Shown piece after piece: positions 41,756 through 63,470 of a stretch of 64,000 nucleotides of DNA; position 1 is the first letter of the stretch; every line of letters starts with the position of its first letter. The position numbers and the translations under genes are program-made. The DNA is from an uncultured bacterium (GTDB lineage: Bacteria; Omnitrophota; Omnitrophia; Omnitrophales; Aquincolibacteriaceae). Location of the stretch: NCBI GenBank assembly GCA_964606385.1, contig CAZSFZ010000003.1, positions 111,615 through 175,614 on the forward strand, given 5' to 3'. The notes under the pieces are model-generated. The model ran no database searches. It had not been told where the DNA came from and worked only from the letters and a program-made list of their open reading frames with translations.

Positions 41756-43231
41756 TCACTGATGGAAAATCTCTTTTAAGATGGCGTCTGCAATGTTTTC
41801 GGCAAGTAACCGGTTTCCTTTCGCGGTACAATGACCGAAATCCCCGCCGAAAATATCCGTAAAATATTCTTTGTAGTCGCTTTTTTTAAGAGCATCTTTG
41901 AAAATTTTCTCATTATCAACAAATAAGATATCTGTCTCCCCTTCAAATATCTTTTTAAGCGGTTCCACGCTCCGCACAGGATATTGGACGCACACGAGCC
42001 GGATACCTCGCTGATCGAGCATATACTTTATTTTGAGATAATTTTCTCGGGTCACAGGATCATAATATCCCAATCGGACCTCATTGGCTTTTTTAAACAA
42101 CGCGTCAGCTTGTTTTTTATTTCCCATTTCCTTATAAAGCACCGCTAACCGTCCGTATGTTTTTGCGGCTTCGGCTTCATCCTGAATGCGTGTCAGCTCG
42201 ATCGTCTTTTTGAATTGTTTCTTCGCGCAGTCTTCCTCCCCGAGAAGTTCGCACGACCACCCCAGCTGGAAATTCGCTTCCACATTTTCGGGGTTCTTTT
42301 GAACTGCTTTTTCATACATTTTCTGCGCTTCCCGTTCCCTGCCGGTCCTGTGATAGATCCCGCCCAAATCGAGGTATCCCCGGACATTCTCAGGCTGCAG
42401 CGCGATGGCTTTTTGATATGCTACTTCCGTTTCCGGATACCTTCCCTGCCGGTCATAAGCCATCGCTAATCCAATATAAGCTTCATAATGCTCCGGATCT
42501 TCGGCGACCATTTCTTTGAAGATTTTTTCCGCCTCAACCCCGCGGCTGTTAAGAATATGATCATAACCTTCCCTTAGAGGATTTTTTTCGACGGGGATTA
42601 CGGAAGTTTCTTTGTTTTGGAGAATATCTGCGCGAGGCATCAAAGAGTCTTTAGGAATCGGGGCCTGTTCAGATAGCTCTTCGCTTTTGGTTCGGCGTAA
42701 TGAAGTCTGCCCTCGGTGGAGCTTGGTGGTTATATGGAGCCAAAGATAGCGGAAGAGTTTATAGGTCCTGAGTTTTTCAAGAAGAGAAGGGCGTTTTCCG
42801 GGAACGCTGTATTCGCGGGGTAAGTGGGATGCAAAATCATTCACGCCCATCATAGTGATGACAATATCCGGCTTGAAGGTGTTAAGATTTTCTTGCAGAT
42901 GATCTGCAATATAGCTGCTTGTGATACCGGAAAGCCCCTTATTGATCACGATGAACTTGATCCCCGCATTCCGTCCATTGAGGATCTTTTCCAGCTGTTC
43001 CGGATAAGGCTCCGGACCGGCCTGTGTTGTTGATTCCCCGAGACAAAGAATCCGGATCACATCCTTTTGCTTCATGGCGACGGCATTTTGATAATTCTGT
43101 GCTGAAACAATGAGAAAGCCGCAACAGCGCATCGACACCTCAAGCATGAGGAGGGACAAGAAGATCCCGAAAAACACCAGCGCTGTCTTTTGAATGAGGC
43201 TCGTTTTCAAAAAGTCCTCTCGGATTTTCAT
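41756..43231 (-). CDS. membrane-anchored SGNH/GDSL-type hydrolase with C-terminal TPR repeats
   Basis: 491 aa. N-terminal TM. GDSL-like block ILCLGESTTQ...GLSGITSSY...MMGVNDF. Multiple TPR units (AYIGLAMAYDRQGRYPEAEVAYQKAIALQP...). Confidence 0.55.
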   Translation of the reverse strand: MKIREDFLKTSLIQKTALVFFGIFLSLLMLEVSMRCCGFLIVSAQNYQNAVAMKQKDVIRILCLGESTTQAGPEPYPEQLEKILNGRNAGIKFIVINKGLSGITSSYIADHLQENLNTFKPDIVITMMGVNDFASHLPREYSVPGKRPSLLEKLRTYKLFRYLWLHITTKLHRGQTSLRRTKSEELSEQAPIPKDSLMPRADILQNKETSVIPVEKNPLREGYDHILNSRGVEAEKIFKEMVAEDPEHYEAYIGLAMAYDRQGRYPETEVAYQKAIALQPENVRGYLDLGGIYHRTGREREAQKMYEKAVQKNPENVEANFQLGWSCELLGEEDCAKKQFKKTIELTRIQDEAEAAKTYGRLAVLYKEMGNKKQADALFKKANEVRLGYYDPVTRENYLKIKYMLDQRGIRLVCVQYPVRSVEPLKKIFEGETDILFVDNEKIFKDALKKSDYKEYFTDIFGGDFGHCTAKGNRLLAENIADAILKEIFHQ

Positions 43232-43256
43232 CGCGGCAGCAACGATCTAAAGGGGT

Positions 43257-44546
43257 CTAAGTTTTTCTGCTTTTCAAGGCTTCGAGGTGCTCGATGACCT
43301 TCTGCATCTCAGAGTTAAGGCTATGCGCGGAAACTTGTTGGTCCTTTTTTAAAAACTCCCTTAAAAAGACCGTGAGTTTTTCCCGTCGCAGCAGATCTTT
43401 ATAGTGGTTAAGCGTTTTGATCAGCCGCCCCACATATTTTCGCTTTTGGTTTCCATCCGCAATCGTCGCGACAAACCGGACCGCTCCTGCGTGGATATCG
43501 GAAAGCTCGAACAGATGGACGCAACTTTGCAGGCAATGGGTCCGGCAGTGATCGACTTTGCAGCGTATCGCCTTCGCTTTCTGAGAAAGCCACTCTTTCC
43601 GCAGCGAACTCTCTTTCAGGTTCCCGATCAGACCCTGACAGGTCCAAAGATCTCCGTCGAAGGTCAGGACGATCCTCACGATCGCTTCATAGCATTGCAG
43701 GTCTTCATTGAAGGACGTCCCTTCAAAATAGTCCGGGATCAGCTCCAGGATCCTTTCATCGACGTGGATAAATTCGTCTATGGCCGCTTTTTTCAGCAAC
43801 AGGATCTTTCGAATAACCTCCCGGAGCTTATCCATGTTCCGCACGGAAACCCAAAGGTCGTTCTTTTTCCGTTCCTGCATTTCGGTGTTGTCCGACATCA
43901 TGGGCTGGAACACGATGATATTACAGCCTTTGCTTCGCGCAAGATCGATCATGGGCAGCATGTCATCGAGATTGCAGTCCATGATCGTGAAATTGATGCC
44001 GACCGTGGGACGAGCCCGCTCGCCCCGGATCTTGCGAAAGATGTCGATCGTCGTTAAAGCCTTTTGGAAAGAGCCTCTGCCTCTTATAAAGTCATTGGCG
44101 GTTTCAAGGCCGTCGATCGACAAGGTGATGTGGCTCAACCCGCTTTGGGTCAACCGGCGGGCGGTCTCCTCGTCGATCAAAAGACCATTACTGATCAGAT
44201 CGATCTGGCCGATCTTTTTCGAAGCGGCATGTTCGATCAGCGAGAAAATGTCTTTCCGCAGGATCGGCTCCCCGCCCGAAAAGATGATGTGGTCGACCTT
44301 CAGTCCGGCGATCTGATCGATAATCTTTTTGCACTGTTCCGTCGAAAGTTCTTCTTCGGCCCTCGCATTCGCCGACGGGATCCCGCACATCTTGCATCTC
44401 AGGTTGCAGCGGTTCGTCAGCGAAAAGTAGACGTGTTCCGGAGGGCACAGGGGGCGTTTCAGAACCTTGGAATAATAAAAGCCGAGGTTCCTCTCGATCC
44501 GTTTCCATTCCCTTTCCAAACCCTCCTGTTTCACGACCGGCATCAT
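43257..44546 (-). CDS. radical SAM/SPASM-domain protein
   Basis: CNLRCKMCGIP CX3CX2C motif, GGEP, and a C-terminal Cys-rich SPASM-like region (CYEAIV...WTCQGLIGNL...CKVDHCRTHCLQSC). The start is the ATG at 44546 in an ATGA overlap with the upstream gene stop. The track ORF extends to 44669. Confidence 0.75.
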   Translation of the reverse strand: MMPVVKQEGLEREWKRIERNLGFYYSKVLKRPLCPPEHVYFSLTNRCNLRCKMCGIPSANARAEEELSTEQCKKIIDQIAGLKVDHIIFSGGEPILRKDIFSLIEHAASKKIGQIDLISNGLLIDEETARRLTQSGLSHITLSIDGLETANDFIRGRGSFQKALTTIDIFRKIRGERARPTVGINFTIMDCNLDDMLPMIDLARSKGCNIIVFQPMMSDNTEMQERKKNDLWVSVRNMDKLREVIRKILLLKKAAIDEFIHVDERILELIPDYFEGTSFNEDLQCYEAIVRIVLTFDGDLWTCQGLIGNLKESSLRKEWLSQKAKAIRCKVDHCRTHCLQSCVHLFELSDIHAGAVRFVATIADGNQKRKYVGRLIKTLNHYKDLLRREKLTVFLREFLKKDQQVSAHSLNSEMQKVIEHLEALKSRKT

Positions 44547-45574
44547 AGACCCCTTATAATCGCGCTCAAGGACCCGGATCTTTCCCGCGAATAACAGGAT
44601 TGCAAACACAGGTCCCTGCAATTTTTGACACCTCGCCTGAGCGCAGAGGCTTCCTTGGAATACCAACACTCCCGCAGCGAACGCTCGTTCAGGTTCCCGC
44701 AGATCCCATGGCAGGTATAGACAAGCGGCGCTCCGTCATCGCCGCCGCAAATGAAAATGGTTTTGTAGCCTCCGAAACATTGCCAGTCCGCTTTCTCCAA
44801 CGTTTTACGGTAATATTTTCGAAGCAATTCCAACTTGGGTTCTTCATAGATCTGGATGTGATCCCGCTTGAGATCCTTGACTGCTTGAAGCGCCTGATCT
44901 AAAGCGGGCCACTTTGCTTCGCGAACCCAAAACTCGCTTTCCTGCCGGTCGGGTGTATTGAAGTTATCTTTTAAAAGCGGTTGAAAGTTGATCACATCCA
45001 CACCCAGGTCATCCGCAAAGCTCAAAAGCTTTGGCAAGTCTTCCAGATTATGCTCCATCACGGTGCATGCGATCCCGATCGAGGGACCTCGGCCCCGCGT
45101 CTTTTTCGCTCTTATGAGCACCTCGATGCCTTGCACCGCCTTACGGAAATTGCCTTTACCCCGAACCAGATCATGGGTATCTTCCAGACCATCGATCGAA
45201 AAATGAATGTGGTCCATCCCGGAATCGGCCACGGCGTTCGCGAATGCTTCGTCGATCAGTGTACCATTCGTGGTTACGATCGATCTCACGCCTTTGGCCC
45301 GGCAATGGCCGCAGATCTCCAAAAGGTCCTGCCGGAGCAGAGGTTCTCCCCCTGTCAACACGGCTTCCGGGATCCCCATCGCGGCGGCTTGATCGATGAT
45401 GTTCGTGACCGTTTCCCGGGAAAGTTGTTTATGGGGAGCTGCTGGAAGAGAACACATGCTGCAGCGAAGGTTGCACGCCTCAGTCATAGGGATCTGGATC
45501 GCATCGGGACCTACCCAGGGATGTCCGATGTGTCGCGATAGCCAAAAAAGTGCGTCTCTGATGTTTTCTCTCAT
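44543..45574 (-). CDS. radical SAM/SPASM-domain protein
   Basis: FWLSRHIGHPWVGPDAIQIPMTEACNLRCSMCSLP, GGEP, and a C-terminal CFGGYKTIFICGGD...CHGICGNL...CRDLCLQSC. The track start is TTG at 45667. The ATG at 45574 is preferred by analogy with the paralog at 52810. Confidence 0.75.
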   Translation of the reverse strand: MRENIRDALFWLSRHIGHPWVGPDAIQIPMTEACNLRCSMCSLPAAPHKQLSRETVTNIIDQAAAMGIPEAVLTGGEPLLRQDLLEICGHCRAKGVRSIVTTNGTLIDEAFANAVADSGMDHIHFSIDGLEDTHDLVRGKGNFRKAVQGIEVLIRAKKTRGRGPSIGIACTVMEHNLEDLPKLLSFADDLGVDVINFQPLLKDNFNTPDRQESEFWVREAKWPALDQALQAVKDLKRDHIQIYEEPKLELLRKYYRKTLEKADWQCFGGYKTIFICGGDDGAPLVYTCHGICGNLNERSLRECWYSKEASALRRGVKNCRDLCLQSCYSRERSGSLSAIIRGL

Positions 45575-45585
45575 GTGCCCCACAA

Positions 45586-46683
45586 TCAGCGGACTCCGCT
45601 TTGCGTGACGGCTTTGTAGATCGTTTTGTTCTGTTCCTTGAGAATGGTGCAACATCCCGCAAAACAAGGGGCTTTATCTTGGAGTCGTTGCCTGAATTTT
45701 AAATGTTCGCCGGTCCAAAGTTTTTTGAGCCGGATCTTTTTCACGTTCATGCCGGCCACGGGGTCCTGGATCTGCGGGCATTGCAGGATGTCGCCGTTCG
45801 CGTCCACGGAAAGAATATAATAATTCGTAAAGCATTGTCCGGGGTTCTCTTCCGGGCTTTTGCCGGAGCAAGAACACGCCTTCGCTCCCCTCTCCTCCGG
45901 CGCGACCGGGGCCTTGTCTTCATCCAGCCAGTTCCTGGCATAAGCCAATTTAGGGTTTTCCACGAACTTCCGCAACAGGCCTTTGAACTCCTCCCGCTCC
46001 GCCACGCTGAGCTGCAGGGACTCATAGTCCTTCTGCCCGGAATAAAGCATCTTCAGGACATGCACGGATTCGATGTTCTTATGCGCTTGCGCGAAATCCA
46101 GGATATCGGGAAGGGTCTTGTAGTTATGGCGCGTGATCACAACATTCAGGAGGACCCTCAGCTTGCTTTCAAGGCGTTCCAGTTCTTCGAAAAACTCTGT
46201 AATCTTGTGGAAATATGGTTTTCGGTCGATCGCGGGTCTTACTCTGTGCTGGATCTCAGGTGTCACGGCATCCAGGCTCAGAAGCATGATGTCCCAACCA
46301 AACTCTGTCATGACCCGGGCGGCTTCTGGACCCAAAAGGCTCCCGTTCGTGGTCATCGATCCCATAAAGCCGAGCTCTTTGATCTTGCGAAGAATGGCGA
46401 AGATGTCTTTTTTACAGAAGGGGTCCCCGACCAGCCCGCCCAAGTTGATTTCTTTGACTTGGAAGGTCTTGGCGTCCTCAAAAAACGCGAACCATTCTTC
46501 GGGGGCGAGCTCCCTACCCCAGTCCGGCCTTATGGCGCCGCCGTGGTCCGGATGGCCGCCCCGGCAATAAAGGCAGTCGAGGTTGCAGGTTTTCGTCATC
46601 ATGAGCGCGATCGTCTCCGGCCCAACGTTTTTGTCGCGTAATGATCTTTTGACGCGCTCGATCGTATTTCGATCCATGGTCAT
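45586..46683 (-). CDS. radical SAM/SPASM-domain protein
   Basis: TKTCNLDCLYCRGG motif and a C-terminal CSCSGKS...CFTNYYILSVDANGDILQCPQ...CFAGCC. ATGA overlap with the upstream gene. Confidence 0.75.
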   Translation of the reverse strand: MTMDRNTIERVKRSLRDKNVGPETIALMMTKTCNLDCLYCRGGHPDHGGAIRPDWGRELAPEEWFAFFEDAKTFQVKEINLGGLVGDPFCKKDIFAILRKIKELGFMGSMTTNGSLLGPEAARVMTEFGWDIMLLSLDAVTPEIQHRVRPAIDRKPYFHKITEFFEELERLESKLRVLLNVVITRHNYKTLPDILDFAQAHKNIESVHVLKMLYSGQKDYESLQLSVAEREEFKGLLRKFVENPKLAYARNWLDEDKAPVAPEERGAKACSCSGKSPEENPGQCFTNYYILSVDANGDILQCPQIQDPVAGMNVKKIRLKKLWTGEHLKFRQRLQDKAPCFAGCCTILKEQNKTIYKAVTQSGVR

Positions 46684-47738
46684 GATCCCCGAAAAGTGTA
46701 TTTGCTGTTAGTCGCTGATGAGCCGCCTCTGAAGATCGAGATCAGCTTTCCCCAAAAACGCTTTTGGGACGAATCATGCCGTGCGCTCTCTTGCCCCGCC
46801 TTGTCCACCACAAGACCCGCCAGGCAAGGCGATTTGCATTTTTGGACCCTTTTCATTTCCTGAAGATACGCGTCGCAATTCAAGGCGTCCTCAAGCTTGT
46901 GCAGATGAAGGGGGTGATCGATCTCTTTGCCGCAGATCCAGAGATTGCCGCGATAGTTGATGTTAAAGCTCTTTGTTCCCATCAGGCAGTAATTATCCGT
47001 GATCAGCTGGTTGGTGAAATAATCCCAATACCGATCCATCACCCGCAAGGGACGGGCGAGCTTCATCTTTCTTTCGTTCTCATGCAAAAAGGTCAAAAGG
47101 TTTTTCAGCGCTTTTAATTGATGTCGGTCCAGATGAAACCCGTTACGCAAATAGTAGACTTCGTTGTTCGTAATGACCGGTTGAATATCAATGTGGAGTC
47201 GTTTGTGCTTCTTCATGAAAAATTTCAAGAAATCCTTAAAGCGAAGCATGTTCTCGGGCATCAGGACCGACGTGTAGAGAAAAGACCAACCCCCTTTCTC
47301 GAGCAGGCTCACCGCCGCCATGACCTTTTTAAAAACCCCCTTACCACGGATCGCGTCATTCTCTCGCTCCAGACCGTCCAGCGACAACAAGAAAACGACT
47401 TTGTCCTTACAGGCTCGGATGCTTTCTAAAAAAGCTGCGTCTAAAAGGGTCGCATTGGTGACAATGTTAGCAGTAATTCCCTTCGAAGTGATCAACGGGA
47501 TCAAGCGGCCCAGATCGGCCGCCCGCGACAAAGGCTCTCCGCCTCCGAAAGCGATGGTTTCGACAGGAAAGCGAGTGATGTTTTGAACAATGGCCTCCCA
47601 TTGCTCCACGGTCAACTCGAGCTCGACCGGAGTCTTGCTCACCGTCGTGGAGCACATGATGCAGCTAAGACCGCATCGGTCGGTCATGGCAATATAGAAC
47701 TGACCGAACCGTTTCGGATTATTTTCTGAAAAAACCAT
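46680..47738 (-). CDS. radical SAM-domain protein (tandem paralog A)
   Basis: MTDRCGLSCIMCSTT, GGGEPLS, and a C-terminal CLMGTKSFNINYRGNLWICGKE...CKSPCLAGLVV. About 70% identical to the N-terminal half of the 48291 gene. Confidence 0.75.
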   Translation of the reverse strand: MVFSENNPKRFGQFYIAMTDRCGLSCIMCSTTVSKTPVELELTVEQWEAIVQNITRFPVETIAFGGGEPLSRAADLGRLIPLITSKGITANIVTNATLLDAAFLESIRACKDKVVFLLSLDGLERENDAIRGKGVFKKVMAAVSLLEKGGWSFLYTSVLMPENMLRFKDFLKFFMKKHKRLHIDIQPVITNNEVYYLRNGFHLDRHQLKALKNLLTFLHENERKMKLARPLRVMDRYWDYFTNQLITDNYCLMGTKSFNINYRGNLWICGKEIDHPLHLHKLEDALNCDAYLQEMKRVQKCKSPCLAGLVVDKAGQESARHDSSQKRFWGKLISIFRGGSSATNSKYTFRGS

Positions 47739-47747
47739 ATCGGCCTC

Positions 47748-48185
47748 TTAAGACGACTCCCGGTCCCTTGAAAGGTTCAACATTTGCGATTTTATTTCCT
47801 GGGTATCGCAACAGACCTGGTCCAGATGGTCGCGCATGAGTTCCGTAAAATTCCGGATCGCTTCCAGATCGTGGGCCATGCGTTCGCTGGTAACATGGGA
47901 CTGCCGCAGTGATTGTTGTATGCTGTGCATTTGAGCTTCACGGGCGCTTTCCGAAATAATCTTGGACTCAAAAAGAAGCTGTCCTATGTTCGCGAGCATC
48001 CGAACCACGGCGGCCACAATCCAGCAGATGATCATGAACGTGGTCGCTTGAAGGACCCAGTTTGGCTTCCGCGCATGAAAAAAAATCGCCTGCGCTCCCA
48101 CGACGCTCCCTACGATCGCGATGACCCAGGAAAAAGCCAACAGAATGACGCTGTTCAGCATCGGCCTTTTCTTAAATGGTAACAT
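47748..48185 (-). CDS. small membrane protein (2 TM) with a coiled-coil tail
   Basis: 145 aa. Strong AAGGAGGTT RBS. A G10 homopolymer tract sits 28 nt upstream of the ATG. Confidence 0.5.
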   Translation of the reverse strand: MLPFKKRPMLNSVILLAFSWVIAIVGSVVGAQAIFFHARKPNWVLQATTFMIICWIVAAVVRMLANIGQLLFESKIISESAREAQMHSIQQSLRQSHVTSERMAHDLEAIRNFTELMRDHLDQVCCDTQEIKSQMLNLSRDRESS

Positions 48186-48212
48186 GGTATAACCTCCTTC
48201 GTTAACACCCTC

Positions 48213-48290: not shown

Positions 48291-50267
48291 TTATTTTTCC
48301 TTAAATCCTTTCAAAGAGGAACGGCATCCTTCACTTTCAAGAAACTGCTTCAAACTTATCAGTTCGCGATAGTTTTTCTGCCAAGTGTCTTTCTTCCCCG
48401 GCCCAAATGCAAGGGTCCCGTCGCTTTCGATCATGATCGAAAAAGGACCCCCGTTTTGGGGGCCGCTCAAATTTCCCGCTTCGTCCTCGGTAAAAACACC
48501 AAAATCAGAAAAGTCGGGATTAGGGTCGAAGCGAAAGCGGTCTATGTTAGATTTGATCTTCAGATCATCAAACTTTTTTCTCATGAGCGGTCTATCTTTT
48601 AAAAATCCTTCTTGCTGCTCCGGAGAGAACCCGCGGGATTCTTCGGGCGAAAGAAAGAAAAATCCGTTCAACTTGAATTCCGCCAAAAGGCCGAAAAGCC
48701 TGGAGAGGCCGCCGTCTTGCATTCCGACGGGCGGCGATAAAATATCGATGAGAGGATGGTCGGCGTGATACACCCCCTTATATTTTTCTGAGGCTCTCAA
48801 GATCCTGAGCGCGCGTTCTTGTTGCGATCCGAGAGTCAGATCAAGACGGACGCCCAAGCGGCTGATCAAACCGTCTCCCGTCAAACGTTCCAAGTTCGCC
48901 TCATTCAGCCGAAAAACGCCGGCCATTACGCTAATGAATAGGTCCTCATTTTTCAATGCTTCTAAGAAATAAAACAGCTTTTCCTTGTAAAAAAAAGGGT
49001 CACCATTCCCGCCGATGTAGATCTCCCGGATCTCAAGCTCGCGGATGTCCTTCACTAGCTTATCGATCAGATCCCTATGCCTAAAAAAATCTTCGTGGGG
49101 GCTAAAACTACACGCATGACCACCAAGCTCCCCTCGGGCGTCCCCACACGAGCTCACTGAGAGAAAAAGCCTGGGGGGGAATGAACTGGCGCGGGAGTCC
49201 GTAGAGTTTTTTGCTTCTCCCGCTCTTCCTGATTCAATTTCGAGCGGGAACCGCCTTTTGAAGCGATCCCTCCGAAGCGCACGGCCGTAAACTGCTTTTT
49301 TCCCTCCGGCATATCCGGTTTTTGTTTCTACCACAAGACCGGCCAAACAGGGGGATTTGCATCTTTTCACCCGCTCCATCTCCTTAAGGTAAGCTTCCGT
49401 GTTAAATACATCTTCGAAAGGATGTTGATAAAGGGGAAAATCGATCTCCTTGCCGCATATCCAAAGGTTCCCGCGATAATTGATGTTAAAGCTCTGCGTT
49501 CCCATTAGGCACCGGTTGTCGGGAACGATCTCATTCCTAAAATAATCCCAATACCGGTCAATCACAGGTAAAGGGCGGGCAATCTTCATCCGTCTCTTGT
49601 TCTTATGCAAAAAGGACAGGACATCCCTCAGGGAGTTCAGCTGCGCTTCATTTAAGTGGAAACCGTTCCGCAGGTAATAGATCTCATTATTTGTGATGAC
49701 CGGCTGGATGTCCACAGGAACGGCCGGGTACCGTTCCGTCAAAAATTCTAAAAAATCCACAAAACGGCAGACGTTCTCGGGCATCAGGACCGAGGTGAAA
49801 AGGAAAGGCCATTGATAGCTCTGAAGCAGGCGCGCGGCATTCATCACTTTTTGAAAAACACCCTGCCCCCGGATCGCGTCGTTCTCTTTTTCAAGTCCGT
49901 CTACCGAGAGAAGAAAAGTGACCCTGTTTTTATGCGCCAGAACGCTCTCCAAAAATTTTTCATCCAGACAGGTCGTATTGGTCACGATGTGGATGGGAAC
50001 GCCCTTGGAGGCGATTAGAGGGATCAAGCGCGTCAGGTCGGTCGCGCGAGACAGGGGTTCCCCGCCGCCGAAAGCGATCATTCCGATCGGGAAGCGAATG
50101 ATATTGCGGATGACGGATTCCCATTTTTCCACGGACATTTCATGCTCCACGGGCGTCTTGCTGATCGTCGTGGAGCACATGATGCAGCTCAGGCTGCACC
50201 GATCCGTCATCGCGATATAAATATGCTCGATCCTTGCGGGCATGCCCCGGTTCTCGGTCGGGTTCAT
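48291..50267 (-). CDS. radical SAM-domain protein (tandem paralog B) with an extra degenerate radical-SAM-like C-terminal domain
   Basis: N-terminal half (MTDRCSLSCIMCSTT...CKSPCLAGLVVE) is paralogous to the 46680 gene. The C-terminal 330 aa contain SCGDARGELGGHAC and IYIGGNGDPFF, a radical-SAM-like fold lacking the canonical Cys triad. The start is the ATG at 50267 (ATGA overlap). The track extends to 50333. Confidence 0.7.
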   Translation of the reverse strand: MNPTENRGMPARIEHIYIAMTDRCSLSCIMCSTTISKTPVEHEMSVEKWESVIRNIIRFPIGMIAFGGGEPLSRATDLTRLIPLIASKGVPIHIVTNTTCLDEKFLESVLAHKNRVTFLLSVDGLEKENDAIRGQGVFQKVMNAARLLQSYQWPFLFTSVLMPENVCRFVDFLEFLTERYPAVPVDIQPVITNNEIYYLRNGFHLNEAQLNSLRDVLSFLHKNKRRMKIARPLPVIDRYWDYFRNEIVPDNRCLMGTQSFNINYRGNLWICGKEIDFPLYQHPFEDVFNTEAYLKEMERVKRCKSPCLAGLVVETKTGYAGGKKAVYGRALRRDRFKRRFPLEIESGRAGEAKNSTDSRASSFPPRLFLSVSSCGDARGELGGHACSFSPHEDFFRHRDLIDKLVKDIRELEIREIYIGGNGDPFFYKEKLFYFLEALKNEDLFISVMAGVFRLNEANLERLTGDGLISRLGVRLDLTLGSQQERALRILRASEKYKGVYHADHPLIDILSPPVGMQDGGLSRLFGLLAEFKLNGFFFLSPEESRGFSPEQQEGFLKDRPLMRKKFDDLKIKSNIDRFRFDPNPDFSDFGVFTEDEAGNLSGPQNGGPFSIMIESDGTLAFGPGKKDTWQKNYRELISLKQFLESEGCRSSLKGFKEK

Positions 50268-55845: not shown

Positions 55846-56622
55846 TCAGGTTTTTTTCATAATATTAGGTTTAAGCTTCAAAAAGAGTCCCCACCCGGCC
55901 AGCAGTGTGATCGCGGCGATAAGGGAGGTCGTCAACAATTCATTCCAAAGGACCCGATCTTCGAATAGCACGCCTCGGAAAAAAGCGATCATTGGCGTCA
56001 TGGGATTGATGTTACATATCCATTGATAGTTTTGAGGGACCATATCCACGGAATAAAAAACGGGCGTGATCCAGAACCAAAACATAAGAAACACGGACAA
56101 AAGCTGGCCAATGTCGCGAAAATAAACATTCAAGATCGAAATGATAAGGCCCGCCCCGGAAACAAACAAAAGGATAAGGGCGAATCCCACGATCAGGAGA
56201 GGAAACAAAGCAATAATCTGGGGCCTGAACCATAAAAAAAGAGGATAGATAAAAATCCATCCGATGAGAAAGTTCAAAAAATTCCCCAGGACAGATGCTA
56301 GCGGGATGATCTCGGCCGGCAGATTGAACTGTCTGAGAACGTTTTTCTGGTTCAAGATGGAAAAAGCCGCTTCGGAAACCGCGTTTGAAAAAAAGAACCA
56401 GGGATAAATGCCGGCCAAAACGAACATAGAAAAATCCTTGATGCCGGTCTTAAAAACGCAGACAAAGACGAAGCTGACCGCCAGCATAATGAGTACGGGG
56501 TTAATGACGGCCCACGCCACGCCTAAAAGCGATCGGGAATATTTATTTTTGAGTTGGCCGACGGCCATCCTCCAGACCGCTTCCCGGAAAGAGAACAGTT
56601 CTTTAAGTCTTCCGCATTTCAT
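55846..56622 (-). CDS. wzm: ABC-2 type polysaccharide export permease
   Basis: 258 aa with six hydrophobic segments. The N-terminal region (AVGQLKNKYSRSLLGVAWAVINPVLIMLAVSFVF) is typical of Wzm/TagG/KpsM. Confidence 0.8.
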   Translation of the reverse strand: MKCGRLKELFSFREAVWRMAVGQLKNKYSRSLLGVAWAVINPVLIMLAVSFVFVCVFKTGIKDFSMFVLAGIYPWFFFSNAVSEAAFSILNQKNVLRQFNLPAEIIPLASVLGNFLNFLIGWIFIYPLFLWFRPQIIALFPLLIVGFALILLFVSGAGLIISILNVYFRDIGQLLSVFLMFWFWITPVFYSVDMVPQNYQWICNINPMTPMIAFFRGVLFEDRVLWNELLTTSLIAAITLLAGWGLFLKLKPNIMKKT

Positions 56623-56712
56623 TCAAAACCCTCCCTAGCAAAACTCAAGACTAACACCAGCGCGATCAATCGACAACGAAATCCCCGAGCCCATCGATCC
56701 ATAGGCCATGTT

Positions 56713-57828
56713 TTATGCCAACTCCTTCAAAAGTTTTCGGATGTTGTGTTGATAAGTTTCAAACTGAAAAACCCCTGGAATCAAAGGTGTGGCTGCGGAC
56801 CGCTTCCCGGCCATGATCTCATCTTCGATCGAAGCTGGCGATAAATCTTTGCAGTGCCTCTCTTGAAAATAGTCCAAGATCTCTGCCGATCCCGGATTCA
56901 TCGTGATGAGGATCCTTTGAGAGAGCACGAGCGCTTCCAGAAACGCCAATCCGAACGGTTCATTCCTCCGAAACGGAAAGACACAAACATCGACCTTCTT
57001 GAGAATTCCTGCTACATGGGTCTGAAGCCCGCAAAAAAAGACCACGGATTCCATGCTGTTTTCACGAAGGTACCGTTCTATTTTCTTTTTGTATGCTTTA
57101 GCGCGCCAGTCGCAGGGAGCGACATCTCCCACGATAAGAAGTGCGAATTTACGAGGAACTGTTTTGCCGACCTCATGCATCATCCGCACCAGCTCGAGCT
57201 GTCCCTTGGAAGGATGAATCCTTGCAACCACCGCAAAAATGACCGCATCGGGAGGCAAAGAAGGCTGCTCCTCTTCGAAAGGTGACAGGTCCATAGGTGC
57301 CGGGGAGACCATTCCCTCATAAATGATGGGGATGGCCTTCCGTTTCTCCGTCGAAAAAAGAACATCCCGTATGTTGCGAGACATGCAAACCACGGTCGAT
57401 CGCGTCGCCTGCGCTATCCCGATAAGCATGCGATTCACGCCGCGAGAGGGGAAAAATTCCCGCAAGTGCCAGATGTGTTTTTTCCGCGTGAATGAGGCCA
57501 CCAAGGATGGGAAGACAAGCAACAAGTTGTTCGTATAAAGCAGGTCGATCTTTTTTAAAAGAACGTATCCGGTAAAAAAAACCATATCGAGCAAAAACAA
57601 GACCGGAGCGAGCAGATAATAAATCGGAGACCATGAGAAGGTTAAAATGCTCAGAGGAAAAACGAAGATAGAAACATTCTTTCTTTTCAGCATTTTTTGG
57701 AGCGGGCCCTGTCGCGGAACCACCACGGTGATCTCATACTCACCCCGGATCGCTTCGATCAGATTAAGAAGTCCACGCTCCGAGCCATAAAGCTCGCTCC
57801 CCGAACTAAAAATAAGTATTTTTTTCAT
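56713..57828 (-). CDS. family-1 (GT4-like) glycosyltransferase
   Basis: Rossmann-like GT-B layout with EX7E-like segments (FGLAFLEALVLSQRILITMNPGSAEI). The ATG at 57828 (MKKILIFSSGSELYGSERG) is preferred, in an ATGA overlap with the upstream GT2. The track starts at 57888. Confidence 0.65.
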   Translation of the reverse strand: MKKILIFSSGSELYGSERGLLNLIEAIRGEYEITVVVPRQGPLQKMLKRKNVSIFVFPLSILTFSWSPIYYLLAPVLFLLDMVFFTGYVLLKKIDLLYTNNLLLVFPSLVASFTRKKHIWHLREFFPSRGVNRMLIGIAQATRSTVVCMSRNIRDVLFSTEKRKAIPIIYEGMVSPAPMDLSPFEEEQPSLPPDAVIFAVVARIHPSKGQLELVRMMHEVGKTVPRKFALLIVGDVAPCDWRAKAYKKKIERYLRENSMESVVFFCGLQTHVAGILKKVDVCVFPFRRNEPFGLAFLEALVLSQRILITMNPGSAEILDYFQERHCKDLSPASIEDEIMAGKRSAATPLIPGVFQFETYQHNIRKLLKELA

Positions 57829-58682
57829 CTTCGGAACTTCCGCGAGACGTCGTGCCACGCTTGCTTCGCATGAGGATTTGTCAGGCAAAAATGAAGTATC
57901 CGCGGAATGTCATAAAAAAAACTCCTGAGAAAGAACCGGCTTAAGTTCGTTTCATTTTTGGCAATAATATAAAACCGGTTCCGAAAGCTGTAAAAACGCC
58001 GTTTTTGCGGATCGATCGGAGCGCTTCCCCCTTGATGAACACAACACAGTTGCGGGTCGAACAAAAACTTGTACCCCTTTTTTGTAAGGCGTAAGGAAAG
58101 ATCCGTATCTTCGAACAAAAAGAAGAAATCTTCGTCAAAATACATTCCTTTTCCCCGAACCTCATCGAGACACGACCGCCGAAGCGCAGCGCAACAGCTA
58201 TTAAAACCGTTCACTTCAAATGGCGCCGAGGCCGTCGAAGCGGCTTTTCCCTTCAAAACATCGTGAGACCGATAAAGGGGAGTGATCTTCAACCCGCAAG
58301 AAAACAGCTCGCCTGTATTTGCTTGAGATATTTTGGCGGTCAGCCCGGCATAGCACGGACTCAAAGAGGCCAGAGATCGCTCGAGAGCGTCGAAAAAGCC
58401 TGCTTCCAAAAAAGCGTCGGCATCAAGGAACACGATAAACCGGCCTTGGGACGCGCGTATGCCTTGATTCCGAGCCGAAGCGCTCCCTAAATTTTTTTCA
58501 TTGCGGATCAGCTTCACGCTGGGATAATTATTTAAAATAAGGTCAGGCGTTTCGTCGGAAGATCCATTATCCACAACAAACACTTCGTAATCCCGATGCC
58601 CTTGGGACATGACAGACTCAAGACAGCGACGAATAAACATTGCGCTGTTAAAAGTGGGAATGATGAAAGAGAGAAGTTTCAT
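57825..58682 (-). CDS. family-2 glycosyltransferase
   Basis: MKLLSFIIPTFNSAMFIRRCLESVMSQGHRDYEVFVVDNGS...LDADAF GT-A motifs. Confidence 0.8.
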   Translation of the reverse strand: MKLLSFIIPTFNSAMFIRRCLESVMSQGHRDYEVFVVDNGSSDETPDLILNNYPSVKLIRNEKNLGSASARNQGIRASQGRFIVFLDADAFLEAGFFDALERSLASLSPCYAGLTAKISQANTGELFSCGLKITPLYRSHDVLKGKAASTASAPFEVNGFNSCCAALRRSCLDEVRGKGMYFDEDFFFLFEDTDLSLRLTKKGYKFLFDPQLCCVHQGGSAPIDPQKRRFYSFRNRFYIIAKNETNLSRFFLRSFFYDIPRILHFCLTNPHAKQAWHDVSRKFRR

Positions 58683-58740
58683 TTCAGCATATTTTCGACA
58701 AAGAAAAATAAAACCCTGTTAGACGGCGGTTCGGGTCGGG

Positions 58741-59520
58741 TCAGATCAATGAAGCGCTTTGAGCTTTCCCAAGCCTGGACATGCCCTGAAGCGCCGACTT
58801 ATTCTTTGGATTAAAGGTCAGAGCTTTCGCAAACCATGTTTTTGCTCTTCTGGGGTCCTTTCGCCGTATTTCAAGCCAGCCCATTTCGGCAAGAACCTGG
58901 TCATTTTTAGCATTCATCCGTAAAACATAGGAGAAAAGGCCCTCAGCGTCGTTCAGCCTGCCTTGCTGAGCATAAATAATTCCCAATTGGGTCGCCACAT
59001 CCTGATCCTTGGGGTTTGAAGCTAACTTTTTTTTATATTCTTCCGCAAGAGCCTGCCTTACACCGGCTTTGGCTTCTTCGTTCTGGGCGTCAAGAGAAAG
59101 CGCTTTTTGAAAATATTGCCGGGCCCTGACAAAATCCCCCTGCCCTAAAAAAATATTTCCAGCCTCAACATAAATTTCATCGTTATTCGGATCCTCAGTG
59201 ATTGCTTTTGCTAATATTTTTTTAGCCAGGCTTTTTTTGCCCTGAGCCCGATAAAGCTTTGCCCATAAAAGCCTGGCTTGGATGCTCTGAGGATTGATTT
59301 CCCAAGCTTCTTTTAAGAGTTTTTCTGTTTGCGCATAATCCTTTTTAGCAAGATGAAGCGACGCCTGATTCAGGAGATCGTTCTCTGTCAAAGGTTGCTT
59401 GGGTTGGTGCCTTTCATAAGAGGCATCCGCTTCAACCAGAGCGGTCTCCGCCGACGCGCGGCCGGAGATACCCGAAACAACGAGGAGGATCAAGATGCTT
59501 AAAAATGTTCTATGGCGCAT
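58741..59520 (-). CDS. secreted TPR-repeat protein
   Basis: Signal peptide MRHRTFLSILILLVVSGISGRASA, with the ATG at 59520 preferred. The track ORF extends to 59586. Six or more TPR units. Confidence 0.6.
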   Translation of the reverse strand: MRHRTFLSILILLVVSGISGRASAETALVEADASYERHQPKQPLTENDLLNQASLHLAKKDYAQTEKLLKEAWEINPQSIQARLLWAKLYRAQGKKSLAKKILAKAITEDPNNDEIYVEAGNIFLGQGDFVRARQYFQKALSLDAQNEEAKAGVRQALAEEYKKKLASNPKDQDVATQLGIIYAQQGRLNDAEGLFSYVLRMNAKNDQVLAEMGWLEIRRKDPRRAKTWFAKALTFNPKNKSALQGMSRLGKAQSASLI

Positions 59521-59607
59521 GCCCTGTCTTTCCGTGTGAAGGAGACGTTTTTTGTTTTCCGCAGTGAGTATGCCTCTTGGACCCAAAACCTCTCGTCTCG
59601 ACGTATT

Positions 59608-60747
59608 TTACCCTTCTTCATCCTGCCCAAATAGGTCTATTTTTTCCATTTGCTCAGCAAGCTCGACAAATTCACCTCTCTCGGAACACAGCTGGAGACA
59701 AGGCGTTTGACATTTTTTTATCATTTTCCGATATTGATTAGCCTGCTTGGAATACCAGAGTTCCCTTAGAGAGGATTGTCTTATGTCACCAAAAACCGCT
59801 TTGTGTTGGTTTTCGTTCACGCAAAAATAGATCTTCCCCTCCTGGGTGATTTGAAGCCGGTTATAGCCCGCATAACACGGAAGCTTCTTGGGATCCAGAC
59901 ATCCTCTGAAATATTTTTTCATCCATTCCAGCCGTTTCACGCTGTTGCCAAGAAAATCATAATCGGAGGGAGAGCTTTTTTTGCGAGCGATCAATCCGTC
60001 GATAGCATGGTCCAACACATCCAAACGTTCCGGAGGGATCGCCCCGGTAAAATTCTTTTCCCGTTGCGCCTGGTTCACATTGCAAGCGACCACGGGCTGA
60101 AAAAGAAGCTTCTCCGCCCGCAGGTCCCTGCAGAGATCAACCAGGCTTACAAGCTCTTCGAGGTTATCGTTCATCACGGTACAGACAATCACTATTTTCG
60201 GAAATTCGCCGCCTCTTTCTTTTTTGATCTCATTTATAGCATGAATATTCTGCAGAATGGTTTTCAGGATGTTCTGCCCCCGAATATTTTGAAAAGTTTT
60301 TTCTGTGGCGGCGTCGATGGAAATACTCAGCCATTTCACACCGGAATCAAAACACGCCCTGACATTTCTTTCATTCATTAAGACCCCATTGGTGATCAAA
60401 ACGGTGTTCAGACCAAAACTTTGAGCATATCGCACCAATTCAAAAATATCCTCACGCATAAACGGTTCCCCGCCAAGAAAAATAATATCGCGCGTCCCAA
60501 GCTCGCACGTCTCCCGGATCACTTTTTTACAAAGTTCCGTGCTGATCTCGACCTCCCTGTTCTCCTTTTTGTGGATCTCCATCTGCTTGTGCATATCACA
60601 CATTTTGCATCTTAAATTACATTGGAAGGTGAAATTCATTTGAACAAAATCGGGCGGGAGTAATGGAAAATTGGCCTGACGCGAAGCCCAAAATAAAGCA
60701 TTCCGTCCCAAAAGCCACTCTGATTTCTCTTTTTTTCCTGAAATCAT
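59608..60747 (-). CDS. radical SAM/SPASM-domain protein
   Basis: MNFTFQCNLRCKMCDMH, LGGEPFM, and a C-terminal CYAGYNRLQITQEGKIYFCVN...CQTPCLQLC. Confidence 0.75.
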   Translation of the reverse strand: MISGKKEKSEWLLGRNALFWASRQANFPLLPPDFVQMNFTFQCNLRCKMCDMHKQMEIHKKENREVEISTELCKKVIRETCELGTRDIIFLGGEPFMREDIFELVRYAQSFGLNTVLITNGVLMNERNVRACFDSGVKWLSISIDAATEKTFQNIRGQNILKTILQNIHAINEIKKERGGEFPKIVIVCTVMNDNLEELVSLVDLCRDLRAEKLLFQPVVACNVNQAQREKNFTGAIPPERLDVLDHAIDGLIARKKSSPSDYDFLGNSVKRLEWMKKYFRGCLDPKKLPCYAGYNRLQITQEGKIYFCVNENQHKAVFGDIRQSSLRELWYSKQANQYRKMIKKCQTPCLQLCSERGEFVELAEQMEKIDLFGQDEEG

Positions 60748-63470
60748 CCGGCATCCTTTCCAAGGCTGATTTTGATATCACAAAAACAGTAACGCCCCGG
60801 CCAAAGAATTCCCTTTTCCGGTTCCGCGCTGAGTTTCAAAAGACGTCCGCGATGGCAAATATCAGAGTTCATGATGTTCCAGATCGCCCGCATGTCCACA
60901 CCCCCTTCAGGGGTGAACCGGATCTCCGGCAGCTGGGCGGTCCCGGAAGAGGCTCGAATTTCTTTTAAGCCTCCCGCCCCCTCCAAAAACCCATCGCTGC
61001 TCCAGATCACGGGCCACTCATCGGGTTTTTCTTCAAAAGGCGGCATGTCCGCTTCAAAACCGTTACCGGTCCATTTATTATAAAGCTCCGAAAGCATGAT
61101 GTTGGTTTGAAGTTGTTCGAGGCATACCTTTTCTATGACCTCCAACTCCGCTTTCCAGATGATCGTGTCGCGTCCCTCAAAGGAAACCCGGCATTTTTGT
61201 AAAACCGGCAGCGATCGCCACTCACCCGAGAACAGGACTTCTTCCTCCGATTGAGCCGTAACCCACTTTGCATCAAGATAAGAGTTCAGCCAACGCCCTT
61301 GATATCTCAGCGACGTACAAAGCCCCATTTTTTTGGTTATTTCCCGTCCCTGGAAAAACAATTTACCCCCTCCTTGAAAAAAAACAAAACTTACGGGATC
61401 ACGCTTAAAGACCCGTTCCGAACCTTCTCCCAAAATTGACGGGGCGATCGCTCCGACAACCTCGAAACAATCATGGTGACCGGGGCCGAACCGGGTTTCA
61501 CGTTCCGGCTCAACCCTTCCGACGCGAAGATCGCGCGCCCTGAAAGATAAATCCGTATTGAAAATTTTCATGTAGGTGTTCTGATTTCGAGAGATTTCTT
61601 TCAAGGAAAAACCCGGCATTTTATCGTCTGATGCCTTTAAGGCGATCTCGCCTCCAACGACGCTTTTCTGAAGAATATCGACTTCATGCTCCTGAAAATG
61701 TTCGGCGAAAAAACCTCCGCCCCATGGACTATCGTAGAGATCATAAGCCTCAGAAAACATAAGCCGGAGATATTGTTCGCCGATGTCGACTTCTTTTTTG
61801 AGTTCCAATGCCACCCGCCACGAAAAAGAATTATTTTCTTTTAATTCCAAGGTCCAGATCTGCGTGATCCCGCTGTCCGGGAAAACCCCGCGCGCGATTA
61901 GTTTGTTCTCGTGGTCTTTGCGGCAGCTCCATGAGGCCCATTCGGAAGAATAGCAAACGTTATCGACCCAAAACATACTGACAAAGTTCCTGGATTTCGT
62001 CAGTCTCGTTTCTTTAAAAAACAGCACCCATTGCCCCTTATGAAATAGAAATTTTAAATCCCCCCGAGCTAAGCCGTAATGATCGGCCAGCTGACGGGTG
62101 TATTCTTTGATGTCGGAGCGCGCGATCGCGATCTTTCCAAAAAAATTCAGCGCTCCGCGATTTTGGTCTGGATCCTCGCTGGGGATTTTCTTCTCCCGAT
62201 ACTCTATCGTTCTTGCGTGAGCGAAATAATCCGTATTCAACAGTTTGATCTTGCTGGAAGCGGAGGGTTCTATCTGCTCGATCACGATGGGAGGAGCGGA
62301 ACCATCATCCTTTCCCATCAGCCCCACAAAAACAGGCGGTAAATCGTCCCCGGCTACATCGTTCCACTCCGTCTGGCTTTCCGGAATGTCCGGAAACTTT
62401 CCGTTTTTAATGAGCGTCAGCCACTGTTGATAATCGGAAGACCATAATGCGGTAACACACCTCTCTTCCACATCCTTCAACCCTTTACCTTCAAAGCGCA
62501 TACTGAAAACGACTTGTCCGTCCCGGAGCAATTGTATGTTCCATATTTGTTTTAGATCGAGGCGATAAAAATCACCTTCGGCCGAAATAGTGTCGTCCCG
62601 CTGTTCAACCCGCCAGCTAGCTTCAGAGGGCTGATACCATCTCCCTTGGGCGAAGAAACGGGCAAAGATCCCGGGTTGAGGCGTGATAAGCTGTCCGTTC
62701 CAATTTAAAAGCAATCGCCCCTGGTTAAAGATGATTTTGAGGGCTTCCTTTTGCAAAACTCCAACTTCCTGCCCAGTTCCTGCGGTTTGGATATAAAGAG
62801 AAAGTGATTCGTGGACAGAGCTATCACTGATTATTCTTCCGCCCTTCAAAAAAAGGGCCCTTCGCGAAAGCTTTTTCAACAAGCTCATATCGTGAGTTGC
62901 AAAAACGATCGTTTTCTTATTTTCTTTTAGTTCGAAGATCTTTTTTAAACATTTGTTCTGAAAATACTCGTCGCCCACTGAAAGCGTGTCGTCAATAACA
63001 AGCACGTCTGGATCCATATGGATCGCGATCGCAAAAGACAATCTGACAAACATGCCTTGAGAATAACAGCTCACGGGCGCGCAGATGAATTTTCCTAAAG
63101 AAGCAAAGTCCTCTATCTGCTGATACACATCATCTATTTTTTTGCGCGAAAGACCGAATAAATTGGCGTTAAGGTAGATGTTCTCCCGCCCGGTGAGGTC
63201 CGCCTGGAACCCGGCTCCAAGGTCCAAAAGACCCGCCGCGCGTCCCGAAACGACCGCCGCGCCGCGGCTCGGCTTCATAATGCCCGCGACGATTTTTAAG
63301 AGCGTGGATTTTCCGGAGCCGTTCTCTCCGATCACGCCCAGCGCTTCTCCTTGCTCCAAGGCAAAGCTAATGCCCCGCAAAGCCCAAAAATTTTCTTTTT
63401 GATGTTTACCTTCTATCGAAAATTCTATCTGGTACATCTCCCACACATCATCGAATTTCACGGCTTCCAT
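60744..63470 (-). CDS. wzt: ABC transporter ATP-binding protein (Wzt-like) with a large C-terminal extension of about 650 aa
   Basis: N-terminal 250 aa carry Walker A GENGSGKSTLLKIVAG, the signature TLSVGDEYF and Walker B VLVIDD. The remaining 650 aa match no domain I recognise. ATGA overlap with the downstream radical SAM. Confidence 0.75.
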   Translation of the reverse strand: MEAVKFDDVWEMYQIEFSIEGKHQKENFWALRGISFALEQGEALGVIGENGSGKSTLLKIVAGIMKPSRGAAVVSGRAAGLLDLGAGFQADLTGRENIYLNANLFGLSRKKIDDVYQQIEDFASLGKFICAPVSCYSQGMFVRLSFAIAIHMDPDVLVIDDTLSVGDEYFQNKCLKKIFELKENKKTIVFATHDMSLLKKLSRRALFLKGGRIISDSSVHESLSLYIQTAGTGQEVGVLQKEALKIIFNQGRLLLNWNGQLITPQPGIFARFFAQGRWYQPSEASWRVEQRDDTISAEGDFYRLDLKQIWNIQLLRDGQVVFSMRFEGKGLKDVEERCVTALWSSDYQQWLTLIKNGKFPDIPESQTEWNDVAGDDLPPVFVGLMGKDDGSAPPIVIEQIEPSASSKIKLLNTDYFAHARTIEYREKKIPSEDPDQNRGALNFFGKIAIARSDIKEYTRQLADHYGLARGDLKFLFHKGQWVLFFKETRLTKSRNFVSMFWVDNVCYSSEWASWSCRKDHENKLIARGVFPDSGITQIWTLELKENNSFSWRVALELKKEVDIGEQYLRLMFSEAYDLYDSPWGGGFFAEHFQEHEVDILQKSVVGGEIALKASDDKMPGFSLKEISRNQNTYMKIFNTDLSFRARDLRVGRVEPERETRFGPGHHDCFEVVGAIAPSILGEGSERVFKRDPVSFVFFQGGGKLFFQGREITKKMGLCTSLRYQGRWLNSYLDAKWVTAQSEEEVLFSGEWRSLPVLQKCRVSFEGRDTIIWKAELEVIEKVCLEQLQTNIMLSELYNKWTGNGFEADMPPFEEKPDEWPVIWSSDGFLEGAGGLKEIRASSGTAQLPEIRFTPEGGVDMRAIWNIMNSDICHRGRLLKLSAEPEKGILWPGRYCFCDIKISLGKDAG

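Follow-up and report, generated by a model that had tools for sequence, protein, structure and literature searches.

The stretch of DNA analysed here (64,000 nt, hereafter the window) comes from the genome of an uncultured bacterium of the phylum Omnitrophota and carries, on its minus strand at positions 41756-63470, a gene cluster in which many radical S-adenosylmethionine (rSAM) domains are found together with glycosyltransferases (GTs) and an ATP-binding cassette (ABC) exporter of the Wzm/Wzt type. Judging by its gene content, its conservation in related genomes, the folds of its domains and the lack of any gene for a peptide substrate, we propose, tentatively and with somewhat less than even confidence, that this cluster encodes Omnitrophota's own version of the envelope-glycan pathways that depend on an ABC transporter (Wzm/Wzt), one in which rSAM enzymes would rewrite the sugars of the lipid-linked glycan.

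Within the window the cluster has 16 genes, all co-directional (g2 to g17, Table 1), plus a 17th gene (g1) that is cut by the window end. The genes are tightly spaced, with intergenic gaps of 5-129 bp, and all six 4-bp stop/start overlaps (g2/g3, g5/g6, g9/g10, g10/g11, g13/g14 and g15/g16) read ATGA. The order, strand and content of the genes, as well as the ATGA overlaps, had been described in an earlier note made from the sequence alone, and our reading of the open reading frames (ORFs) together with Pfam searches agrees with that description. One of its labels needed correction: the first gene, called a membrane protein, really encodes a 456-aa PMT-family GT-C, of which the window holds the C-terminal part, as seen in an identical public contig. 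The protein called GT1 matches Pfam Glycos_transf_1 and is of the GT4 family. The window fragment of g1 has no Pfam match by itself, and no PDB sequence relative was found for g1. The boundaries set by the earlier note also missed the upstream part of the cluster, since the operon extends at least 9 kb past the window end. An identical Logan contig of 31.4 kb (L002) carries this continuation on the same strand, at L002 1-9364, and as it includes two more cobalamin (B12)-binding rSAMs the whole cluster has at least 12 intact rSAM domains.

Ten rSAM domains lie in the window itself, each with a Pfam Radical_SAM (PF04055) match above cutoff and an intact CX3CX2C motif: those of g3, g9, g13, g14, g15 and g16, the C-terminal half of g8 (g8C), the N-terminal half of g11 (g11N) and both halves of g10. 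This is the number stated in the earlier note, and such a concentration in 22 kb is not due to chance, given that the remaining 42 kb of the window hold only one rSAM domain, that of RlmN. The C-terminal half of g11 had been considered a degenerate second rSAM-like domain. Indeed, it lacks the motif, having an 8-residue deletion and a single Cys left, and its stand-alone ortholog of 392 aa at another locus (L003), 33% identical, keeps CNDSCKYC. The N-terminal half of g10 is a predicted class-B enzyme, its B12-binding domain having a PF02310 score of 38.9 bits (cutoff 32.1), and in related loci the two halves of g10 occur as separate adjacent genes encoding 454 and about 416 aa.

Alignment of the nine non-B12 domains revealed a common auxiliary pattern, C-x17-22-C ... 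C-x3-C-x3-C, with four to five Cys. Six domains have all five, g14 has the variant CxxxCC, and g11N and g13 miss the last Cys. None of these nine domains has the seven-Cys SPASM motif (CX9-15GX4C - gap - CX2CX5CX3C - gap - C), and Pfam SPASM (PF13186) was over its cutoff in only three of them (g3, g9 and the C-terminal half of g10, g10C). Thus, the nine SPASM-type Cys clusters announced previously are not canonical; the auxiliary domain is twitch-like by its Cys pattern and probably binds one auxiliary Fe-S cluster. The long signature that the earlier note had assigned to these proteins is literal in g9 and holds loosely in g3, g10C, g15 and g16, but g8C, g11N, g13 and g14 diverge from it; a looser core, P[DE]x.Q[IM]..T..CN[LI]RC.MC, fits g3, g9, g10C, g15 and g16. 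The Met before the third Cys, described as unusual, is present in seven of the ten domains, and BlsE has Met at this position too. The same five proteins that fit the looser core have in common an N-terminal helix motif, R[ND]xxF[WY]xS[RK], ahead of the Fe-S motif in the alignment, which the earlier note does not mention. In g9 this motif is encoded at 53815-53865, within a predicted helix of residues 3-19; the five paralogs may share it as a means of docking or of contact with the membrane interface.

The rSAM paralogs of the window are only 22-36% identical to one another, with the exception of g11N and g13 (67%), yet for each of them other species have orthologs that are 40-60% identical. 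This indicates that the array is ancient and that its members have been individually maintained, and therefore each paralog probably has a step of its own.

The fusion of a GT2 domain to an rSAM domain in g8 is the signature protein of this system. More than 120 full-length homolog clusters (45-100% identity) were found in metagenomes, and the source names that bear a taxon are all Omnitrophota or Omnitrophica, except for one 'Patescibacteria group bacterium' and one 'bacterium'. Among 28 aligned orthologs there is no variation in the acidic motifs of the GT2 domain (DDD), the GGEDLE motif, CX3CX2C or the C-terminal Cys, indicating that both halves are under selection. The nearest matches of the GT2 half are chondroitin polymerase (4e-25) and PglI (7e-13), an undecaprenyl-diphosphate (Und-PP)-glycan glucosyltransferase, with ArnC and the DPMS-type polyprenyl-phosphate-sugar synthases farther away (about 1e-6); it thus resembles glycan-elongating enzymes. 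GT-rSAM fusions are not confined to Omnitrophota, because a metagenome-assembled genome (MAG) of Pseudomonadota (L077; 21555-21716, 10001-11716) encodes a 722-aa fusion of GT4 and rSAM/SPASM domains, along with a 571-aa rSAM/SPASM protein that is a distant relative of g9. The setting there is different, with genes for an HTTM protein, a trypsin-like protease and a kinase.

By sequence, g2 and g7 are a genuine Wzm/Wzt pair. The nucleotide-binding domain (NBD) of g2 has Aquifex aeolicus Wzt as its best PDB match (E 1.5e-59), followed by TarH/TagH and RfbE, and the g7 permease scores 63.8 bits against PF01061 (cutoff 26.9). In a structural model built on six sequences, the C-terminus of Wzt comprises three galactose-mutarotase-like supersandwich repeats, the repeats being also supported by Smith-Waterman alignment with a shuffle control. 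Carbohydrate is bound in nearly all of the matched structures with this fold, and the Wzt C-terminus is a predicted carbohydrate-binding domain (CBD). An exhaustive phmmer search found at least 224 representative proteins of this family at E <= 1e-10; most of them are about 900 aa long with the match starting right after the NBD, and some have more or fewer repeats. Proteins P0264-P0338, which carry the repeat module, range from 670 to about 1400 aa, with one of 2244 aa, which suggests variable repeat numbers and other architectures for the module. The GC content of window positions 56001-64000, the Wzt-GT-Wzm part, is 0.47, as opposed to 0.52-0.56 across most of the window.

In relatives, the recurrent extra genes immediately upstream of Wzm, all in its orientation, encode a GT4 (27/57 loci), a WecA-like PF00953 transferase (26/57) and a flavoprotein (34/57), the last one aligning over its full length to UDP-galactopyranose mutase (UGM; 4dsg, E 1.5e-40). 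A GT4, a WecA-like transferase and UGM make up the gene set of galactofuranose-containing ABC-dependent O-polysaccharides, as for Klebsiella galactan. Rarer extras in these loci are GH44-like, SAM methyltransferase, HAD hydrolase, CBM30-like and NodU-type carbamoyltransferase genes, and no family of enzymes modifying nucleoside diphosphate (NDP)-sugars was present among the recurrent accessory genes. The predicted product of the cluster is an exported lipid-linked polysaccharide.

The earlier note had suggested a comparison of genomic context across homologs, and this comparison showed that the rSAM arrays recur with Wzm, Wzt and GTs. Scanning one genome per species, 70 loci with a g8-type fusion were found, nearly all labelled Omnitrophota; the remaining labels, which are unconfirmed, are 'uncultured Planctomycetia/Planctomycetales', 'uncultured bacterium', and Nanoarchaeota, Woesearchaeota, Methanosarcinales and Paceibacterota MAGs. 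Likewise, g9 has about 50 ortholog clusters of metagenomic origin (45-90% identity), and nearly every taxon-bearing source name is Omnitrophota or Omnitrophica. The syntenic core in relatives is Wzm - Wzt (about 905 aa) - GT2-rSAM - g3- or g9-like rSAM - B12-rSAM - further rSAMs (g15/g16-like pairs) - GT2 - small transmembrane (TM) protein - B12-rSAM - GT2, with ORFs assigned to window genes by best BLAST hit among paralogs. Of the 32 related loci that span 20 kb or more, 26 have Wzm, Wzt and the fusion together, and the number of CX3CX2C motifs up to 10 kb from the fusion has a median of 6.5 (range 0-11); as the flanks were limited to 10 kb, the counts for relatives are lower bounds. Orthologs of g3 come after the fusion in many loci, and those of g15 (43-54% identity), also present in many, are usually followed by an ortholog of g16 (41-47%). 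Weak homologs of g12 (20-34%) stand beside a B12-rSAM in about a dozen loci. In the window genome the order is rearranged to Wzt-g3-TPR-GT2-GT4-Wzm, as opposed to the common order Wzm-Wzt-fusion of the relatives. At one locus (L078), 21 kb hold 11 or more rSAM genes, and a NodU/CmcH-type carbamoyltransferase gene is inserted at 13516-15512; two others (L038 and L072) have genes for small membrane proteins inside the rSAM array.

In the proposed pathway, where the lipid-linked glycan as substrate and every single reaction are deduced from the genes, the glycan would be begun on polyprenyl phosphate by an initiator such as that of the relatives, and GT4 and GT2 enzymes would then lengthen it on the cytoplasmic side of the membrane, as the gene set suggests. 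While the glycan is still cytoplasmic and lipid-linked, the rSAM paralogs would abstract H atoms at specific sugar carbons, which may lead to epimerisation, dehydrogenation or oxidation, deoxygenation, decarboxylation or ring rearrangement, and the B12-rSAMs, judging by the chemistry of their family, may put methyl groups on unactivated carbons. This work would be confined to the cytoplasm, because SAM and a low-potential reductant are needed. In the g8 fusion, a single glycosyl transfer would be tied to a single radical step. The finished polymer would be bound by the triple module of Wzt, mutarotase-like by its fold, and exported through Wzm/Wzt. Finally, the PMT-family GT-C, the SGNH-TPR protein (as an O-acyl transferase or esterase) and secreted TPR scaffolds may act in the periplasm. 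The earlier note had already argued for radical tailoring of a surface glycan; the Wzm/Wzt pair, the glycan genes in relatives and the missing peptide gene agree with it, an agreement that does not extend to rSAM action on the glycan itself or to the types of reaction.

It must be taken into account that several points weigh against such a pathway. We know of no characterised precedent for rSAM modification of a lipid-linked polysaccharide. The profile hidden Markov model classification that the earlier note had suggested placed no rSAM in any curated family: in NCBIfam and Pfam scans of the nine rSAM proteins and the upstream ones no curated family cutoff was reached, and the best scores against named equivalogs (AhbD, NirJ, MoaA, PqqE, W-cofactor maturase, HpnJ, Tes and BlsE) were 55-162 bits, with cutoffs of 265-650. 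Curated family assignment was dropped, the sub-threshold matches being spread evenly over AhbD, NirJ, MoaA, W-cofactor maturase, PqqE and StsB. The AlphaFold2 model of g9 (pLDDT 92) has an rSAM fold and was matched by Foldseek to SkfB, BlsE, CteB, MoaA, SuiB, anSME, GDGT-MAS, viperin and DesII, with TM-scores of 0.5-0.7. Some of these matches speak for the pathway: the best full-length match of g9 is BlsE, a sugar-acid decarboxylase (0.68/0.72), the sugar enzyme DesII is matched as well, and one upstream B12-rSAM had HpnJ, which acts on a glycolipid sugar, as its best match (162 bits, cutoff 577). The fold cannot decide the substrate, because the peptide maturases SkfB, CteB, SuiB and anSME are as prominent as the sugar enzymes, and the search for a substrate by this route was abandoned, since generic twitch/SPASM matches mix peptide, sugar, cofactor and lipid enzymes. 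Moreover, an initiating transferase and a UGM homolog of the window genome are found neither in the window nor in the 9 kb upstream, and no OPX/PCP or WaaL genes were seen. All sequences come from metagenome assemblies.

The rSAMs could instead work at an earlier stage and modify soluble nucleotide-sugar donors, in the way that DesII and BlsE modify small sugars; the GTs would then polymerise the resulting rare sugars, and the fusion would channel a newly modified donor to its transferase. We consider this rather unlikely, although it has points in its favour. The structural matches of g9 include both BlsE and DesII, and all the characterised sugar-modifying rSAMs known to us act on small molecules. 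In addition, classical genes for NDP-sugar epimerases, dehydratases and aminotransferases are absent from the loci, so that sugar diversification needs another source. However, six to twelve paralogs would mean many rare donors for three or four GTs, and the GT2 half of g8 resembles enzymes acting on polymers or Und-PP-glycans, even if this likeness is mute on the donor. For these reasons, the fusion to a polymer-type GT2 and the many conserved paralogs relative to GTs, the lipid-linked glycan is weakly favoured as substrate over nucleotide-sugar donors.

It is improbable that the enzymes tailor the lipid part, either the polyprenyl carrier or a glycolipid anchor, by methylation, cyclisation or tail-to-tail coupling in the manner of Tes, Grs, Hbs, Mss and the hopanoid methylases, with Wzm/Wzt exporting the glycolipid. 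GDGT-MAS does appear among both the sequence and the fold matches, the B12-rSAMs have partial matches to HpnR and to the 'ladderane' lipid B12-rSAM family, and homologs of Hbs and Mss exist elsewhere in some Omnitrophota. However, the latter are reported beside tes or mss and not beside glycan-export genes, and Tes scores (35-76 bits, cutoff 450) are below those of AhbD, NirJ and MoaA. Genes for fatty-acid, polyketide or isoprenoid synthesis are missing from the window and from the set of recurrent accessory genes alike, and the triple carbohydrate-binding-fold module of Wzt and the UGM homolog favour a sugar polymer. Tetrapyrrole genes, which would point to a cofactor, do not accompany the cluster either, in the window or in this accessory set.

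The absence of a Cys-rich small ORF claimed in the earlier note was borne out in the gaps of the window. No small ORF with a plausible precursor core was found there, and when the 117 small intergenic ORFs of 57 related loci were clustered no family occurred in more than two loci. A lone 67-aa Cys-rich ORF at 41321-41524 was discarded as an artefact that overlaps tRNA-Arg, and the small-ORF pairs common to L038 and L072, also considered as precursors, are small membrane proteins instead. Pfam searches found no PqqD or recognition element (RRE) of ribosomally synthesised peptides that are modified after translation (RiPPs), no leader peptidase and no peptide-type ABC exporter among the cluster proteins, and an N-terminal RRE is ruled out by space, since the CX3CX2C motif or rSAM core already begins at residue 22-47. 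A 6816-aa ORF was rejected as a protein substrate in the cluster, as it is separated from it by tRNA, tadA, PilZ, CorA, RlmN and response regulator genes and contains 0.1% Cys. Therefore, although peptide maturation is what SPASM/twitch rSAMs are mostly known for, the top structural matches of g9 include SkfB, CteB, SuiB and anSME, and a PMT-family GT-C could glycosylate proteins, it is very improbable that the rSAMs mature a ribosomal peptide or protein (RiPP-like, or a secreted or TPR protein) with the GTs decorating the product. These searches covered the cluster and related loci, and a protein substrate encoded elsewhere is conceivable.

Returning to the lipid-linked glycan as substrate, the closest known systems are the ABC-dependent O-polysaccharide pathways (Escherichia coli O9a, Klebsiella O1/O2 galactan, Aquifex aeolicus), which likewise have Wzm, a Wzt with a C-terminal extension (here a predicted glycan-recognition domain), and cytoplasmic assembly by GT2 and GT4 enzymes. 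A further likeness is seen in relatives of the window genome, whose operons include a WecA-like initiator and a UGM homolog. The known CBD of Wzt is a single beta-sandwich of about 150 aa, whereas the protein described here has three mutarotase-like repeats of about 225 aa each. We found no such pathway in the literature with even one rSAM, as opposed to 6-12 here. O-antigen loci are typically hypervariable, but the Omnitrophota locus is conserved across the phylum.

Among rSAM enzymes, BlsE, DesII and BtrN likewise combine a TIM-barrel core with a C-terminal Cys-rich auxiliary-cluster domain. However, identity to them is only 15-19%, the sequence likeness covers the N-terminal half only, and the C-x17-22-C...CX3CX3C auxiliary motif is particular to the Omnitrophota family; moreover, those enzymes act on soluble antibiotic precursors and are not part of envelope-glycan operons. 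In the HpnI/HpnJ/HpnK pathway of the hopanoid side chain and in archaeal calditol synthesis, a glycosyltransferase first adds a sugar to a membrane-bound substrate, and an rSAM then rearranges that sugar. The upstream B12-rSAM has its best partial match in HpnJ of this group, but hopanoid genes are absent here and export is by Wzm/Wzt. The multi-rSAM RiPP cassettes (SCIFF, SynChlorMet, GeoRSP, proteusins) also have several paralogous SPASM-type rSAMs per operon, and their profile models give partial matches here; the present cluster differs in having no precursor, RRE or peptidase and in scores far under the curated cutoffs.

The earlier note had regarded a glycan pathway of this kind as undescribed, and we found no description of the locus in the literature searched, which comprised work on rSAM and glycan export and the main Omnitrophota genomics papers; subscription journals were thinly covered, so that this absence is no proof. 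The transporter and GT framework is of a known kind, to which the set of rSAMs, the long Wzt and the fusion of GT2 and rSAM add novel variations.

Table 1. Genes of the cluster in the direction of transcription, with window coordinates, and its upstream continuation.
Gene	Coordinates	Strand	Product and evidence
upstream of window	L002 1-9364	same as cluster	338-aa protein; GT9 heptosyltransferase-like; B12-rSAM (503 aa; best partial match HpnJ); two TPR proteins; 163-aa membrane protein; B12-rSAM (474 aa); 456-aa PMT-family GT-C
g1	63566..64000	-	C-terminal part of 456-aa PMT/ArnT-like GT-C, N-terminus past window end; full gene on Logan contig with Pfam PMT and PMT_2
g2	60744..63470	-	Wzt, 908 aa: ABC ATPase (aa ~1-235) and 670-aa C-terminal extension with three ~225-aa repeats
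g3	59608..60747	-	rSAM, 379 aa, twitch/SPASM-like C-terminal domain; Pfam Radical_SAM 1.2e-22, SPASM 3.1e-10
g4	58741..59520	-	Secreted TPR protein, 259 aa, Sec signal peptide, N-terminus MRHRTFLSILILLVVSGISGRASA; multiple Pfam TPR matches
g5	57825..58682	-	GT2 glycosyltransferase, 285 aa; Pfam Glycos_transf_2 8.5e-30
g6	56713..57828	-	GT4-family glycosyltransferase, 371 aa; Pfam Glycos_transf_1 3.7e-16; ATGA overlap with g5
g7	55846..56622	-	Wzm, ABC-2 permease, 258 aa; Pfam ABC2_membrane 2.2e-17
g8	53918..55840	-	GT2-rSAM fusion, 640 aa; Pfam GT2 6.1e-32 (aa 5-123), Radical_SAM 2.4e-21 (aa 334-496)
g9	52810..53871	-	rSAM, 353 aa, twitch/SPASM-like domain; Pfam
g10	50264..52813	-	849 aa: class-B B12-binding rSAM, predicted (N-half), and twitch/SPASM-like rSAM (C-half); B12-binding 8.9e-10, Radical_SAM in 2 stretches, SPASM 1.5e-08
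g11	48291..50267	-	658 aa: rSAM N-half and degenerate rSAM-like C-half without CX3CX2C; Radical_SAM only at aa 42-198 of 680-aa reading
g12	47748..48161	-	Small protein, 137 aa, with two TM segments and a coiled-coil tail; no Pfam match, no known family
g13	46680..47738	-	rSAM, 352 aa, 4-Cys C-terminal motif; Pfam Radical_SAM 7e-20
g14	45586..46683	-	rSAM, 365 aa, divergent (CNLDCLYC); Radical_SAM 2.6e-18; SPASM 20.3 bits, slightly under cutoff
g15	44543..45574	-	rSAM, 343 aa, 5-Cys C-terminal motif; Radical_SAM 5.2e-24
g16	43257..44546	-	rSAM, 429 aa, 5-Cys C-terminal motif and helical tail; Radical_SAM 1e-25
g17	41756..43231	-	491 aa: SGNH/GDSL hydrolase with a membrane anchor and fused TPR repeats; Lipase_GDSL_2 1.2e-09 and many TPR matches

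The 3' end of the cluster is at 41756, and g17 is its last gene. Downstream of it come tRNA-Arg(ACG), a TadA-like deaminase, tRNA-Ser, PilZ, CorA, RlmN and a response regulator. The boundary is marked, at 40476-41516 on the minus strand, by tRNA-Arg(ACG) directly upstream of the TadA-like deaminase gene (40725-41228), with tRNA-Ser(TGA) adjoining; proteins of the TadA family are editors of tRNA-Arg(ACG). The 6816-aa ORF lies farther away (13781-34231, minus strand) and has an N-terminal signal or TM segment and a series of unrelated modules (HATPase_c, HD_5, two methyltransferases and NUDIX), with much of its length unannotated. It contains the motif R[SA]E[VIMAT]R, mostly as RSEVR, RSEMR or RSEIR, 21 times, compared with 0.17 expected in shuffles, at spacings of 19-723 aa, and we regard this motif as a candidate module junction or protease site. 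Giant multi-enzyme ORFs are a known and separate feature of Omnitrophota, whose cleavage points are called unknown in a preprint. Between this gene and RlmN, a 572-aa ORF with no Pfam match is found on the opposite strand (34480-36198, plus strand).

The conservation of this locus throughout an uncultured phylum of anaerobes that are nano-sized and possibly predatory makes it probable that a defining part of their cell surface is encoded here, which bears on attachment, host range and phage or immune recognition. A more specific and doubtful proposal is that Omnitrophota have an envelope polymer particular to the phylum, which is edited by radical chemistry after polymerisation. A simple polymer, with galactofuranose in many species, would first be assembled on the lipid carrier, and 6-12 dedicated rSAMs would then convert it residue by residue. 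The product might be C-methylated, epimerised, deoxygenated or even cross-linked by C-C or ether bonds; such editing, if true, would parallel among carbohydrates the maturation of proteusins (polytheonamide). The long Wzt with its three predicted mutarotase-like repeats represents a new substrate-recognition architecture for O-antigen-type ABC transporters. If the enzymes do edit a lipid-linked glycan, rSAM chemistry would be extended to polysaccharides, and about ten uncharacterised enzyme families, the GT2-rSAM fusion included, would be added to a field with few sugar-modifying rSAMs. Moreover, if editing takes place after polymerisation, these ultra-small anaerobes could make exotic sugars without nucleotide-sugar pathways or oxygen.

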